Shown here: one piece after another, positions 890 to 4,441 of the stretch
How positions within the stretch are numbered: the stretch's first letter is position 1
How the letters are laid out: the number at the start of each line of letters is the position of its first letter
Source of the DNA: Planctomycetota bacterium
GTDB lineage: Bacteria; Planctomycetota; Planctomycetia; Pirellulales; Lacipirellulaceae
Direction of reading: 5' to 3'
DNA: 23,101 bases
Assembly: GCA_039190745.1 (NCBI GenBank)
Contig: JBCCXZ010000059.1
Location: forward strand, 1-23,101
Notes under the pieces: model-generated
The model's input: only the letters and a program-made list of their open reading frames with translations
The model's database searches: none
What the model was told of the DNA's origin: nothing
Made by a program: the position numbers and the translations under genes

Positions 890-1112
890 TCGACCTTTCT
901 TTGTCGGTCTCCGCCCCCTGTCTCCGCGCTCTGTTCGCTGCGTCTCACCCAGCCTGCCCAGAAGCGCGACAGCGCCTGACGGCATCGCGGGCAATGAGCT
1001 AGCTACCCGCCGCACCTAGAGACAAACAGTTCCCACAAAACTTTTGCTTTTTGGGCGGAATTCACAGAGTTTTCATGCATTTTCATGGCTCTGCGCACGG
1101 CCTTGTCTAATT

Positions 1113-1130
1113 CAGGCACGCACTTTGCTT
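1113..1130 (+). promoter_or_regulatory. Sigma54 (RpoN) -24/-12 promoter of amtB
   Basis: CAGGCACGCACTTTGCTT: GG at 1115-1116 and GC at 1127-1128, exactly 10 nt apart, close to the consensus TGGCACGNNNNTTGCW. It lies upstream of an ammonium transporter, a classic RpoN target. Predicted start site about 1140. Confidence 0.8.
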
Positions 1131-1144
1131 TGAGCGTGTTTGCC

Positions 1145-1289
1145 CTGCGTGGATTAGCCACTCCGGCGCTATGCCACTCCGGCACAGTGCCACCCCGGCA
1201 CGCCACGCAGCGATGGTGAATTTCAGGCCTTCCTAGGCCGCCCAACTTGACTGCTGGCGGACAAGTCGAGGCACCGCAGCAGGTTGGGT
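1145..1289 (+). promoter_or_regulatory. Structured 5' leader of amtB (candidate cis-regulatory RNA)
   Basis: Stem CTGCGTGG (1145-1152)/CCACGCAG (1203-1210) encloses three GCCACYCCGGC units. Hairpin GGCCT-TCCT-AGGCC at 1226-1239. Stem CCCAACTTG-A-CTGC/GCAG-CAGGTTGGG at 1241-1288. Confidence 0.5.
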
Positions 1290-1324
1290 CAAATCCCTTC
1301 TGACAACACAATGAGGGCGAAGAG

Positions 1325-2782
1325 ATGTTGTGTACTCTGCAAAAGCAGGGCTGGTTGATGCTCTTGATGGCGACGTGCTTGTCGCTGACCGCGACTACGG
1401 CGTTGCCGAACGTTACGTTCGCACAGGAAGAAGAGGCCGCCGCCGAAGAGGCTCCGGCCGAGGAAGCCGCAGAAGAAGCGGCTGAGGAAGAAGCTGAGCC
1501 GATCGACTACGCCGATCTCCGCTGGGAGATGGGCTGGACGATCAACACGCTTGTAATGTTCATCTGCGCGGTACTGGTCATCTTCATGCAGGCGGGCTTC
1601 GCCATGCTGGAAGTTGGCTTGAACACCTCGAAAAACACGGTGAACATCCTCTTTAAGAACGTCATGGACCTTTCGGTCGGCGTGCTGCTCTATCTCTTCG
1701 TGGGCTGGGGCATCATGTACAGCGGCACCGACAGCCCGTATTTCGGGTACGACGGCCCCTGGGTCAGCCGCGATGCACAGATGGCTGATGACGGCAGCTG
1801 GGAAGCTGCTCCGAACGACGCCGATGGTTCGCCTTACGCTTCATCGGGCGCCGACTTCCTGTTCCAGGTCGCGTTCGCCGCGACCGCCGCGACGATTGTC
1901 TCGGGTGCGGTTGCCGGCCGGATGCAGTTCAAGGCTTACCTTGTCTACTCCGCAGTCCTTACCGGCCTGATCTACCCGATCAGCGGCTTCTGGAAATGGG
2001 GCGGAGGGTTCCTCGATCAGCAAGGCTTCCAAGACTTTGCGGGTTCGGTCGTTGTGCACGCGGTCGGCGGTTTCGCCGGGCTTGCGGGTGCGATTGTTCT
2101 CGGCCCGCGCTTGGGACGTTACGTCAACGGCAAGAGCGTGCCGATCCCTGGCCACAACATTGCCTTCGCAGCACTCGGCGTGTTCATCCTCTGGGTCGGG
2201 TGGTACGGGTTTAACCCCGGCAGCCAGTTGACCTACGATGGCTTTGTAAACGCTGAAGCGACGACGTACATCGCTCTGACTACCACGATCTCGGCTGCGG
2301 CCGGCGCCGTAGCGGCGATGGTGTTTGCCTGGGTGCTCTTCGGCAAGCCGGACGTGACGATGGCGCTCAACGGGGCCCTCGCAGGTTTGGTGGCCATCAC
2401 GGCCAACTGCGACCGCGTGAGCCAGCCCGAGTCGCTCATTATCGGCTTGATCGGCGGCGTGCTTGTCGTGATCGGCATCATGCTGCTGGACAAGATGCAA
2501 ATCGACGACCCGGTGGGTGCCTGGCCCGTCCACGGCCTCTGCGGCGTGTGGGGCGGTTTGGCCACGGGTATCTTCGGCGACCTGCCGGACGGTATCGAGT
2601 CGCAGGGAGACTTCTTCTTCGTGCAGCTCAAGGCCACCGTCATCATCTGTGTGTGGGCGTTCGTCACGATGTTCATCCTGTTCGCTGTGCTGAAGGCCGC
2701 CGGGATTCTCCGGGTGTCTGAGGCCGAAGAGCAGCAAGGCTTGGACATCAGCGAGCACGGCATGCAGGCCTACGGAGGCTGA
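1325..2782 (+). CDS. amtB: Ammonium transporter AmtB with signal peptide and acidic Glu/Ala-rich N-terminal linker
   Basis: Amt motifs FMQAGFAMLE, FQVAFAATAATIVSGAVA, DFAGSVVVH, WYGFNPGS, DDPVGAWPVHG (twin His) and C-terminal EEQQGLDISEHG. Confidence 0.97.
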   Translation: MLCTLQKQGWLMLLMATCLSLTATTALPNVTFAQEEEAAAEEAPAEEAAEEAAEEEAEPIDYADLRWEMGWTINTLVMFICAVLVIFMQAGFAMLEVGLNTSKNTVNILFKNVMDLSVGVLLYLFVGWGIMYSGTDSPYFGYDGPWVSRDAQMADDGSWEAAPNDADGSPYASSGADFLFQVAFAATAATIVSGAVAGRMQFKAYLVYSAVLTGLIYPISGFWKWGGGFLDQQGFQDFAGSVVVHAVGGFAGLAGAIVLGPRLGRYVNGKSVPIPGHNIAFAALGVFILWVGWYGFNPGSQLTYDGFVNAEATTYIALTTTISAAAGAVAAMVFAWVLFGKPDVTMALNGALAGLVAITANCDRVSQPESLIIGLIGGVLVVIGIMLLDKMQIDDPVGAWPVHGLCGVWGGLATGIFGDLPDGIESQGDFFFVQLKATVIICVWAFVTMFILFAVLKAAGILRVSEAEEQQGLDISEHGMQAYGG

Positions 2783-2793
2783 TTATTAGGAGT

Positions 2794-2854
2794 GTGACCG
2801 CCCCCCGTGTGCCGGACCGCCACCTACCGGCACGCGGCGGGGCGTTACTTTAAC
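2794..2854 (+). terminator. Strong hairpin after amtB; possible leaky terminator or mRNA-stabilising stem
   Basis: GTGAC(C)GCCCC-CCGTGTGCCGG / loop ACCGCCACCTA / CCGGCACGCGG(C)GGGGC-GTTAC, followed by only a short T-rich tail (TTTAAC). Confidence 0.45.
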
Positions 2855-2898
2855 TCTGGTTCATTGAACGCGATTCCTTGAACGGACGTTCTTTAACA
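2844..2898 (+). repeat. Four degenerate boxA-like direct repeats, period 14-15 nt
   Basis: GTTACTTTAAC (2844), GTTCATTGAAC (2859), ATTCCTTGAAC (2873), GTTCTTTAACA (2888). The last matches the boxA consensus GYTCTTTAANA. Confidence 0.5.
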
Positions 2899-2910
2899 AA
2901 CTAGATGTGT

Positions 2911-3499
2911 TCGACTCTTGCCTGGGTCGGAATGTAGTCCCACTGGCTTGGTCACGCCCCGCCGCCTAGGCGTGGCCAAGCCGGGACTGCATTATCCAGG
3001 TCGCTACCAGATCCAGGTCGCTACCGAGAGTCGATCGGCCCGGCGGCGTCGGGCGAGACAGGCCGCCAGCGTTGTGCCGCGTGTTAAACACCCTGGGGCC
3101 GCTTCTGCTGTGCTTCTGGACCCACGCCGTGCGATCCGCCGCTGCTTGTTCACGAGACCAACCGGATGCTTCCTCCAGAAGCTGCACCTAAGAGCTGGCT
3201 TCACGCGGGTTTCAGCCGCGGACGATCGAAGGCCGTCATCCACGGCGTTCTACCGTGCGGGAATGGCGGCGGTCGGCCGCTGCGAAACCCGGTTCCCCGT
3301 CCAGAAGGGTACCCCAATGGCTTGGGAAGCGCTTATCCGCCTAGGTGCTCCCAAGCCGGGGTATCTTTCGCTTACTAGCCGGCGGGCGATCGCATAGGTC
3401 AGCGACTGCCCGCGCGGCCTCGTCGGCACTCCGGCTGGGCATTCTCCTCCGCCGTGGGTTGCCGTATCATAAAGCTTTGGACGCGACGGCACGGCGGAG
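2911..3499 (+). ncRNA. Candidate large structured RNA or mRNA spacer between amtB and glnK
   Basis: At least six long stems (2911-3034, 3077-3208, 3207-3290, 3304-3369, 3378-3418, 3447-3499). Many mismatches are G-U compatible on the + strand. No credible CDS. Confidence 0.5.
2994..3025 (+). repeat. Exact 15-bp tandem duplication
   Basis: ATCCAGGTCGCTACC at 2994-3008 and 3011-3025, separated by AG. Confidence 0.9.
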
Positions 3500-3531
3500 C
3501 AGGCGTCCGGTCTCTTACTCCCTAGAACGCG

Positions 3532-3879
3532 ATGAAACTCATCATTGCCGTCATCCAGCCCAGCAAGCTGGAAGAAGTGAAGGCGGCGCTATCCGAAGTC
3601 GAGGTCGTCCGGCTGACGATCATGGACGTGCAGGGCTTCGGCCGCCAGAAGGGCCAGACCGAGGTCTACCGCGGCCGGGAGATCTCGGTGAACCTGCTGC
3701 GGAAGGTGCAGCTGCAAATCGCGGTGAACGACGAGTTCGTGGAGCCGACCGTCAGCGCCATCATCCAGGGCGGCCGCACGGGCGACTCCGGCCAGATCGG
3801 CGACGGCAAGATTTTTGTGCTGCCGCTGGATGATTGCATCCGCATCCGCACGGGTGAGCGCGGGCCGGAGGCGATCTAG
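3532..3879 (+). CDS. glnK: P-II family nitrogen regulatory protein (GlnK-like)
   Basis: PII motifs GFGRQKG, YRG, IGDGKIFV, IRIRTGE; next to amtB. Confidence 0.95.
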   Translation: MKLIIAVIQPSKLEEVKAALSEVEVVRLTIMDVQGFGRQKGQTEVYRGREISVNLLRKVQLQIAVNDEFVEPTVSAIIQGGRTGDSGQIGDGKIFVLPLDDCIRIRTGERGPEAI

Positions 3880-3955
3880 TTCTTGTATCGAATGCCAGGC
3901 TCTGCTCTGTCTTGGCTATCCACTGCATCGGCCCGTGAAGCCAGACTACTCGGTG

Positions 3956-4441
3956 TCACGATCTTGGTGGATGCACGTGGATCGTGTGCTCGTCACCACC
4001 GGCGCCGTGCATGATGGTATTGTGGAGCAGCTGTGGTTCATCTGAGGTGAAGTCAAACCTGAGTATCTCAGAACACTCTTCGTTAAACGGCAGCAAGTTT
4101 GCGACGATCAGTTCTCTGTGCGGCTCCTCGTTCGGAAGGCTCGTTTGAACAAAGCAGCTAAAGCTCTCACCATTATTCCACAGGTGATAGAATCGGCTCT
4201 GTTTTGCTCCCCTGTTCTTGTCTTCAGCGATATGACGGACGAACTCGAGTTCGGAAGCGTCAACGCGAAGGTACTCAAATGAATGGGTGTGCTGAGAGAC
4301 GCTGTCTATCTCCCAGACCGCGTCTTGCTCATCTGGATCGGCCCAGAAGTAATCCCTTGGCTCTAGCACTACTTCCTTCCATAGCGTCTCCCGAAGCAAT
4401 CGGTAACTGATTCTGATCGAGATGGAGTTTCGGGTTGCCAT
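3956..4441 (-). CDS. Hypothetical protein (161 aa), no family recognised
   Basis: ATG-started ORF with globular, acidic composition. It sits in a segment visibly lower in GC than the flanking genes, where a long ORF is less likely by chance. Confidence 0.6.
   Translation of the reverse strand: MATRNSISIRISYRLLRETLWKEVVLEPRDYFWADPDEQDAVWEIDSVSQHTHSFEYLRVDASELEFVRHIAEDKNRGAKQSRFYHLWNNGESFSCFVQTSLPNEEPHRELIVANLLPFNEECSEILRFDFTSDEPQLLHNTIMHGAGGDEHTIHVHPPRS

Follow-up and report, generated by a model that had tools for sequence, protein, structure and literature searches.

What occupies the 749 nt that separate amtB from glnK in a planctomycete, and what might it do there? The window, i.e. the whole 23,101-nt stretch analysed here (contig JBCCXZ010000059.1 of assembly GCA_039190745.1), carries both genes, amtB for an ammonium transporter and glnK for a PII protein. 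The control of ammonium uptake by PII is textbook biology. To our knowledge, control of the amtB–glnK pair at the level of RNA is found in only few lineages, and nitrogen regulation in Planctomycetes is almost unstudied. A first-pass annotation had described the spacer as almost fully base-paired over seven stems and had proposed one large regulatory RNA. The arrangement it reported, both genes on the + strand with the spacer between them, was confirmed (Table 1). What we find conserved is smaller. Beyond the genus, conservation of the spacer is limited to two hairpins, which we call copy A and copy B of one motif, plus an 18-nt box in front of copy A; the remaining spacer is variable filler with lineage-specific hairpins. 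Throughout, the family is Lacipirellulaceae, the order Pirellulales, the class Planctomycetia, and the phylum Planctomycetota. G000 is the host genome (3.9 Mb, 95% complete), G098 is a relative of the same genus, and the other G and L numbers denote genomes and loci of relatives.

Folding of the whole spacer gave −378.9 kcal/mol on the + strand, compared with −320.2 ± 6.0 kcal/mol in 20 dinucleotide shuffles (z −9.76), and −345.2 kcal/mol on the − strand (z −4.21). In the comparison with shuffled sequence on each strand, which the first-pass annotation had suggested as a check, the spacer as a whole thus folds better than its shuffles. The seven stems fared differently when taken singly (Table 1). 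Six of them outdo their shuffles and are hence real local hairpins, whereas stem 3 folds no better than chance. This is the stem whose 9-bp pairing GCTTCTGGA/TCCAGAAGC had been described as perfect. The preference of stems 1, 2 and 5 for the + strand, which had been deduced from their wobble pairs, is borne out by z-scores that are clearly better on that strand. Four loops ending in CTA had also been pointed out; they are present in the sequence, but only those of stems 2 and 5 belong to the conserved motif.

Comparison with relatives shows which parts are kept. In G098, stem 1, both conserved blocks and the last ~90 nt of the spacer are unchanged, and four stretches are missing: the 5′ arm of stem 3, all of 3378–3418, a piece just after stem 1 and a piece just after copy A. 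The spacers of other relatives measure 338–882 nt, plus one of 1684 nt that carries an insertion. A nucleotide search of 120 family genomes matched 79 of them, solely via positions ~2910–2988 and ~3297–3370 of the window, and these two blocks resemble one another. Their order and strand are constant in all 29 relatives' loci compared; within the compared sequence, glnK lies downstream in 28 of these loci and amtB upstream in 17. Because of the gaps in G098, the varying lengths and the restriction of conservation to two blocks, the 749-nt region is not one conserved unit.

To describe the shared element, 43 of 51 distinct copies from 30 loci were aligned with MAFFT (not structure-fitted). Seven near-duplicates were left out, as was copy A of L003, in which an extra hairpin at the bulge disturbed the alignment. 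The RNAalifold consensus is a single hairpin of ~65–70 nt with 21 pairs. Its lower stem ends in CCC/GGG and is followed by a 3–4-nt A-rich bulge on the 5′ side; above the bulge come GGCUUG/CAAGCC, a variable upper stem, and a loop of 12–14 nt. Standard pairs fill 98.6% of the 899 cells of the 43 copies, compared with 84.1% in shuffles and 34–46% with slid partners, and 16 of the 21 pairs have changed on both sides. Five measures were computed, and none was attained by any of 500 shuffles. G-U or U-G pairs occupy 93 cells, at which the opposite strand would have mismatches. In the window, the stems of copies A and B are GC-rich and fold at −44 to −73 kcal/mol; copy B is identical in G098.

Individual letters were counted over 98 hits aligned to the covariance model of the hairpin (R1), namely 97 sense hits and one antisense echo of a true hit. 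Each letter of the loop sequence CCGCCU is kept in 94–98 of the 98 hits, the next letter is A in 68, and the first letter of the bulge is A in 81. The bulge otherwise varies (AAC, ACU, AAA and others), and the 5′ flank CAGAAGGAUG is largely conserved. The motif is a sense-strand RNA structure under selection, with its loop and bulge under sequence selection. Two types of copy can be told apart by what stands in front of them. Type A copies, which occur mainly in the family itself, follow the conserved 18-nt box; its core was looked for in 28 oriented family loci, the window included, and precedes copy A in 20. Type B copies have the flank CCAGAAGG and are spread across the order; in copy B of the window this flank lies at 3301–3308, and a U-rich tail follows the hairpin. 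No complement of the loop was found at a fixed place in cis in the 97 copies: GGCGG occurs within 200 nt upstream of 51 and downstream of 46 of them, which is within the range of control 5-mers and shows no fixed offset. The loop would thus more probably be recognised in trans or within the hairpin.

Table 1 Coordinates of features at the amtB–glnK locus of the window. R1, covariance model of the hairpin; z-scores of the stems refer to 200 shuffles per stem and are given as + / − strand
Feature	Position	Strand	z-score	Details
Predicted sigma-54-type promoter (GG-N10-GC)	1114–1129	+		~195 nt before amtB start; one mismatch to TGGCAC-N5-TTGCW
amtB, ammonium transporter, 485 aa	1325–2782	+		Pfam Ammonium_transp, E 7e-126
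amtB–glnK spacer	2783–3531			749 nt
Stem 1, GC-rich hairpin right after amtB stop, terminator-like	2794–2848	+	−5.35/−2.78	Evidence: z-score and R1 score
Stem 2	2911–3034		−7.75/−3.53	
18-nt box CGACUCUUGCCUGGGUCG	2912–2929	+		Directly 5′ of copy A; from alignment of 5′ flanks
Motif copy A	2928–2996	+		Bulge ACU 2942–2944; CCGCCU 2962–2967; R1 74.1 bits on +, 32.1 on −
Stem 3, unsupported structure	3077–3208	+	−1.13/−0.59	29/200 shuffles fold equally well; 5′ arm deleted in G098
Stem 4, local hairpin, within genus only	3207–3290	+	−3.30/−2.59	No match beyond genus
Motif copy B	3302–3371	+		Bulge AAU 3316–3318; CCGCCU 3337–3342; R1 73.2 bits on +, 24.2 on −
Stem 5	3304–3369		−7.24/−3.83	
Stem 6, local palindrome, lineage-specific	3378–3418	Not assigned	−4.28/−5.45	Not present in G098
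Promoter-like element: ATTCTC (3441–3446), 18-nt spacer, TATCAT (3465–3470)	3441–3470	+		
Stem 7	3447–3499		−4.63/−3.57	
glnK, PII protein, 115 aa	3532–3879	+		Pfam P-II, E 7e-28

Several variations on the hairpin were seen. In copy A of L003 (~1876–1990), the extra hairpin is inserted exactly at the bulge, which gives a three-way junction, and eight U follow; the bulge thus tolerates an insertion. L052 (G200:C112) holds four near-identical hairpins head to tail between amtB and glnK at 3003–3295, with a U-rich tract after each. Judged by eye only, the 18-nt box could itself form a mini-hairpin of 5 bp with a 6-nt loop, whose second pair changes from A-U to G-C in the relative L047. The 9-mer CCAGAAGGG from the 5′ flank of copy B (3301–3309) recurs inside glnK at 3645–3653, which we take to be codons of the T-loop (R-Q-K-G). 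There, CCGCC, the core of the hairpin loop, stands immediately in front of it; the recurrence may be chance.

Three other readings of the element were rejected. A leader peptide starting at an AUG in the bulge (AAUGG) is contradicted by the start codon, which is not conserved because the bulge letters vary, and by a stem covariation that is not codon-like. A sigma-54 promoter inside copy B (TGGC...GC) would have a suitable spacing in some genera only and conflicts with the covariation. A K-turn has tandem G-A pairs next to its bulge, and none adjoin the bulge here.

The motif has a narrow distribution. Rfam 15 gave no match (cmscan of 2500–3900, both strands, E up to 1). In the 3.9 Mb of the host genome, R1 finds two strong matches, both in the amtB–glnK spacer; a weak one (G000:C84:9129-9193; 20.6 bits, E 0.52) lacks the CCGCCU loop and was discarded as noise. 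The spacer itself is single-copy in this genome and thus does not belong to a genome-wide family of repetitive extragenic palindromes (REP) or miniature inverted-repeat transposable elements, the outcome that the first-pass annotation had set against its own proposal. In the family, the motif is present in 103 of 120 genomes and 23 of 24 genera, with 1–5 matches per genome that are clustered on one strand where listed. In the order, it was found in 114 of 151 genomes and 26 of 30 families. It was not found in the 115 genomes searched from other orders of the class, nor in the 150 searched from the rest of the phylum, both of which are samples. A strict exact-pattern scan of the genomes of 185,579 species, with a pattern too strict for a census, returned five records, all from Planctomycetes by title (four Bythopirellula sp. 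and one "uncultured Planctomycetaceae"). Family f19 gave no hits (0 of 9 and 0 of 5 genomes); its glnK is 70–77% identical, and no motif lies nearby in five of five genomes.

Within this range, the motif is nearly confined to the sequence immediately 3′ of amtB and 5′ of glnK. Outside the family, we fetched 40 loci, 20 of them from genomes with arrays or with hits on at least two contigs, and the other 20 from as many further families, each represented by the top-scoring hit in a single genome. This is a chosen set, not a random one. At 13 of the 41 sites, amtB lies upstream and glnK downstream on the same strand. Only glnK is found downstream at 15 sites (66–320 nt away) and only amtB upstream at seven (27–114 nt away). 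At one site, the hairpin lies 258 nt upstream of amtB, and a second copy and glnK come after this amtB. Neither gene is in reach at five sites, two of which are 115 and 239 nt from a contig end. Wherever amtB or glnK is present (36 of the 41 sites), the hairpin is on the strand of those genes. What stands of the proposed new structured RNA is therefore a sense-strand element without Rfam match that is specific to amtB and glnK; its extent as one 749-nt unit does not.

Lineages in which the two genes have come apart are instructive. The two genes are unlinked in family f14, where each has its own copy of the motif. Four of its genomes (G203, G216, G190 and G132) carry one hairpin behind amtB, where the next gene is convergent or unassigned, and another before glnK, upstream of which lies a divergent photolyase-like gene. 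The hairpins of G239 are placed likewise, and unassigned open reading frames (ORFs) flank its amtB. At L044, a separate canonical terminator follows the hairpin behind an unlinked amtB, so this hairpin lies in the 3′ untranslated region (UTR). G257 has five hits, three between divergent amtB–glnK pairs and one before a lone glnK, i.e. four of five adjoin one of the two genes. The separate retention of the motif at unlinked amtB and glnK suggests a coordinated post-transcriptional control of the transporter and its inhibitor.

Other neighbours were also noted. At the loci with glnK only, the upstream gene is often that of a BBP2-type porin (seven loci) or of a trpG-like amidotransferase. A BBP2 (OmpL-like) porin gene stands directly upstream of amtB or of the hairpin–glnK unit, on the same strand, in numerous members of the order (loci L006, L008, L047, L052, L059, L063, L072 and L074); this porin may be an outer-membrane partner of ammonium uptake. 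L062 and L069 are strong hits (62 and 63.5 bits) without amtB or glnK in flanks of ~0.9–2.5 kb on either side. Neighbouring genes encode a WD40/PSCyt1 protein and an ABC-2 permease, and the downstream ORFs have no Pfam family.

In part of the copies, the sequence after the stem resembles that of a terminator. The 12 nt that follow it contain 44.7% T, compared with 20.5% in the same-strand background of the loci (87 tails). Of 91 tails, 29 have four or more T in a row and 39 have six or more T; six hits were left out of these counts as the end of the core was not located. In other families, runs of seven to eight U are common after the hairpin.

Candidate promoters frame the hairpins. In the window, the predicted sigma-54-type promoter precedes amtB (Table 1), and an equivalent match upstream of amtB and on its strand was found in eight of eight relatives fetched. 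When two mismatches are allowed, the window contains three sigma-54 matches against nine expected, i.e. not above chance, so the case for 1114–1129 is one of position and conservation. Outside the family, a sigma-54 match lies 57–239 nt upstream of the hairpin in 9 of the 15 loci with glnK only, and upstream of the hairpin in 10 of 28 when all scanned loci are counted; the pattern is expected about once per 16 kb of random sequence. At the nine glnK-only loci, the hairpin would thus be part of the leader of a sigma-54-driven glnK message.

The family differs in having a further promoter-like element (3441–3470) downstream of copy B; 61 nt separate its end from the glnK start, and its sequence overlaps with the 5′ arm of stem 7. 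Of 29 family loci, 19 contain the pattern TT[CGT][CTG][CGA]-N17-19-TAnnAT, compared with 0.6 on average and never more than 4 in 200 shuffles; outside the family it occurs in 2 of 28 loci (0.69 in shuffles). We read the element as probably a family-specific promoter of glnK's own. An Escherichia coli-type consensus scan of 900–4300 called no promoter, and 3441–3470 was accordingly not called.

The surroundings of this element hold a further repeat in some relatives. Directly after copy B, a purine-rich arm of ~30–40 nt is present in L006, L009, L013–L015, L020–L022, L025, L026, L029 and L030; the window lacks it. The arm consists of tandem units of ~7 nt that differ among genera, and a reverse complement of it extends up to the glnK start codon, so that the two bracket the promoter-like element. 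The arm duplex reaches z ≤ −3 in 12 of 28 loci (−0.7 in the window itself). Such a duplex would mask the glnK start in read-through transcripts and leave it free in promoter-proximal ones. In L018, ~1.3 kb are inserted between copy B and glnK.

Taken together, we tentatively favour a reading of the hairpin as a terminator-type attenuator, whose CCGCCU loop and A-rich bulge would be recognised by a trans-acting factor, probably a protein. Under nitrogen limitation, transcripts would start at the predicted sigma-54 promoter upstream of amtB or, in other lineages, at a sigma-54 start directly upstream of the hairpin and glnK. On reaching the GC-rich hairpin and its U-rich tail, transcription would stop or continue into glnK, depending on the binding of the factor. 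Where amtB is unlinked, its message would end with the hairpin. In the family, glnK would have its additional promoter at 3441–3470; as this promoter lies downstream of copy B, the hairpins would there mainly set how much transcription from amtB reaches glnK. A protein partner is suggested by the form of the element, as hairpins that bind proteins are usually of this stem-bulge-stem-loop kind, with specific letters in bulge and loop, e.g. the iron-responsive element (IRE), the trans-activation response element and the operators of phage coat proteins.

A number of points weigh against this attenuator. Five of the 41 sites adjoin neither amtB nor glnK. In the window, the hairpins are followed by weak U-tracts (T at 4 of 12 positions behind copy A and at 7 of 12 behind copy B), and many type A copies of the family have none. 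The loop of 12–14 nt exceeds that of classical intrinsic terminators (3–8 nt), and the spacer holds no terminator by the consensus scan. We found no antiterminator fold that would compete with the hairpin. Because of the promoter-like element downstream, copy B may lie outside the main glnK leader in the host. Furthermore, the conserved features of a terminator hairpin suit a stabilising factor or ligand as well as an antiterminator. Nor did a candidate factor emerge. ANTAR proteins were rejected as the general partner, as PF03861 does not track the motif: it is absent from the host genome and present in 59 of 151 genomes of the order (motif, 114 of 151), in one of nine genomes of family f14 (motif, nine of nine) and in 0 of 10 of family f4 (motif, 8 of 10). 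CsrA proteins are a lead. The host genome has eight matches to the CsrA domain above the Pfam cut-off (C12, C121, two in C7, C8, C103, C1 and C14), a large set of paralogues that could include RNA-binding regulators. The 5′ flank of type B copies, copy B included, resembles a CsrA site (A-rich, then GGAUG); its GGA lies in the stem, and we regard this as a lead only.

An extension of the attenuator would be an RNA operator of a post-transcriptional nitrogen regulon, in which one nitrogen-sensing RNA-binding protein would bind the hairpins of the amtB 3′ UTR and of the glnK leader and thereby set the AmtB:GlnK ratio reciprocally. We consider this speculative and rather unlikely. The logic would be that of the animal IRE and its binding protein (IRP), where one gene has a bulged hairpin in its 5′ leader and a functionally linked transporter gene has one to several in its 3′ UTR. 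Here, the glnK leader and the amtB 3′ UTR carry 1–5 copies with a specific bulge and loop. The likeness is one of logic only: the sequence is unrelated to the IRE, the system is bacterial, and the hairpin has a U-rich tail. We know of no description of a control layer with IRE logic for PII–AmtB systems.

Among the alternatives to regulated attenuation, a constitutive 3′ end or insulator survives best, although we doubt it. The hairpin would end or stabilise the message of amtB (or of the porin) and shield glnK without any signal input, and the conserved loop would be there for a general factor, e.g. a nuclease or termination protein. The U-rich tails agree with this, as do the hairpins at the 3′ end of unlinked amtB genes with a convergent next gene (L034, L036 and L039), the copies in series at L052, and the position of the glnK promoter-like element downstream of copy B in the family. 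However, the sequence of ordinary terminators is not kept across 26 families, the loop is all but invariant whereas the stems covary, and the element is confined to one or few loci per genome. A constitutive terminator between a sigma-54 match and glnK, the arrangement of 9 of 15 glnK-only loci, would only lower expression.

A riboswitch is improbable. It would bind a molecule that reports nitrogen status (e.g. glutamine, 2-oxoglutarate or a nucleotide), perhaps via a contact between bulge and loop, and the ligand would stabilise the terminator stem. The leader position behind sigma-54 matches fits, and so do the near-invariant unpaired letters, the loop without a partner in cis and the tandem copies, which are seen in some riboswitch classes. 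The structure argues otherwise, as the simple stem-bulge-stem-loop lacks a junction and has fewer than 10 near-invariant unpaired letters. In addition, a placement in the 3′ UTR of unlinked amtB would be unusual for a riboswitch, and no Rfam riboswitch family matches.

We give a slightly poorer chance still to a released small RNA (sRNA), the other idea of the first-pass annotation, in which termination and processing would free the hairpins and the C-rich loop would pair with G-rich sites of other messages. Many sRNAs have a 3′ module made of a hairpin with a U tail, which our element resembles; the invariant C-rich loop and the 1–5 copies per locus would suit this role, and in L037 the glnK start is preceded, at a distance of 5 nt, by a perfect 8-nt complement of the loop. 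On the other hand, only 3 of the 97 copies have the 7-nt loop complement in the 200 nt that follow them, and no Hfq domain was found in the host genome (95% complete).

The single large RNA of the first-pass annotation has very little left in its favour. Its support is the z-score of the whole spacer on the + strand, and it is largely refuted by the relatives, in which only two blocks are conserved beyond the genus and 1–5 hairpins are separated by unrelated filler in spacers of 338–882 nt; the four stretches missing from G098 and the non-significant stem 3 add to this. Most improbable of all is an element acting as DNA (a palindromic operator, a mobile repeat or chance): the hairpin is near-palindromic and its − strand scores above noise (32 and 24 bits), but the 93 wobble cells, the one-sided bulge, the loop conserved on one strand only, the invariable sense orientation, the single locus per genome and the lack of a tRNA all speak against it.

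Known systems resemble the attenuator in parts. In ANTAR leader antitermination (NasR at the Klebsiella nasF leader, AmiR, EutV), the target consists of two short hairpins, each with a loop of six letters (the first being A and the fourth G), and the second hairpin overlaps the terminator. What is shared is a regulated promoter, e.g. of the sigma-54 type, a terminator hairpin in the leader and a nitrogen gene; as there, a protein acting in trans would decide on read-through. The layout of promoter, hairpin and glnK is ANTAR-like at those 9 of 15 glnK-only loci. Unlike ANTAR targets, the hairpin here is single, long and bulged, has a loop of 12–14 nt with CCGCCU and matches no Rfam family, and many genomes with the motif, the host included, have no ANTAR protein. 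Intrinsic terminators and intercistronic stabiliser hairpins such as the REP in the malE–malF spacer are likewise GC-rich hairpins with U-rich sequence between operon genes or at a 3′ end; they differ from our motif, whose sequence and loop are conserved across the order, whose loop is long and which occurs at one or few loci per genome. The guanidine-II (mini-ykkC) type, with two small hairpins and ACGR loops, was rejected: the loop here has CCGCCU within 12–14 nt, and there is no Rfam match.

Glutamine riboswitches fold into a three-stem junction with a pseudoknot. They differ from our hairpin in fold and taxa, and their Rfam covariance models give 0 matches here. In the text of the discovery paper, they (glnA RNA and Downstream-peptide) are cis-acting RNAs at PII, ammonium-transporter and other nitrogen genes, sometimes in tandem, from cyanobacteria and marine metagenomes (Weinberg 2010, PMC2864571). 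The Rhodopirellula-1 motif is a candidate cis-regulatory RNA from Planctomycetes; in the aligned sequences and consensus of that paper, it has no CCGCCU loop, its conserved letters are others, and no link to amtB or glnK is stated (PMC2864571). Our motif is not described in the literature we consulted on amtB/glnK RNA motifs and on structured RNAs of Planctomycetes, i.e. in the main texts of the discovery papers; among supplements, that of the 2010 paper (PMC2864571) was covered, for the Rhodopirellula-1 motif. Judged by its sequence and predicted structure, the element would be a new RNA motif of a known general kind, the cis-regulatory hairpin, and it has the defining features of neither ANTAR targets nor the IRE. 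It is unusual in being attached both to a transporter gene and to the gene that encodes the inhibitor of this transporter. With its clear covariation, its invariant loop, its strict association with amtB and glnK and its presence in 26 of 30 sampled families, the hairpin offers a well-defined handle for finding the factor or ligand, and the covariance model can be used to annotate these genomes.

R1 scores stem 1 at 14.1 bits (E 0.11), a weak look-alike that is possibly a degenerate third copy of the motif. In all 11 family loci with amtB and the box, a strong hairpin of unrelated sequence occupies the position of stem 1 (RNAfold, no shuffle control). The region of stem 4 is diverged in G098, where one change at the stem base appears to be compensatory. 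An ORF at 2918–3397 has no Pfam family, and a tRNA scan found none. Upstream of amtB lies ftsY (2–889); downstream of glnK, the other strand carries one unassigned ORF and ATP synthase genes.

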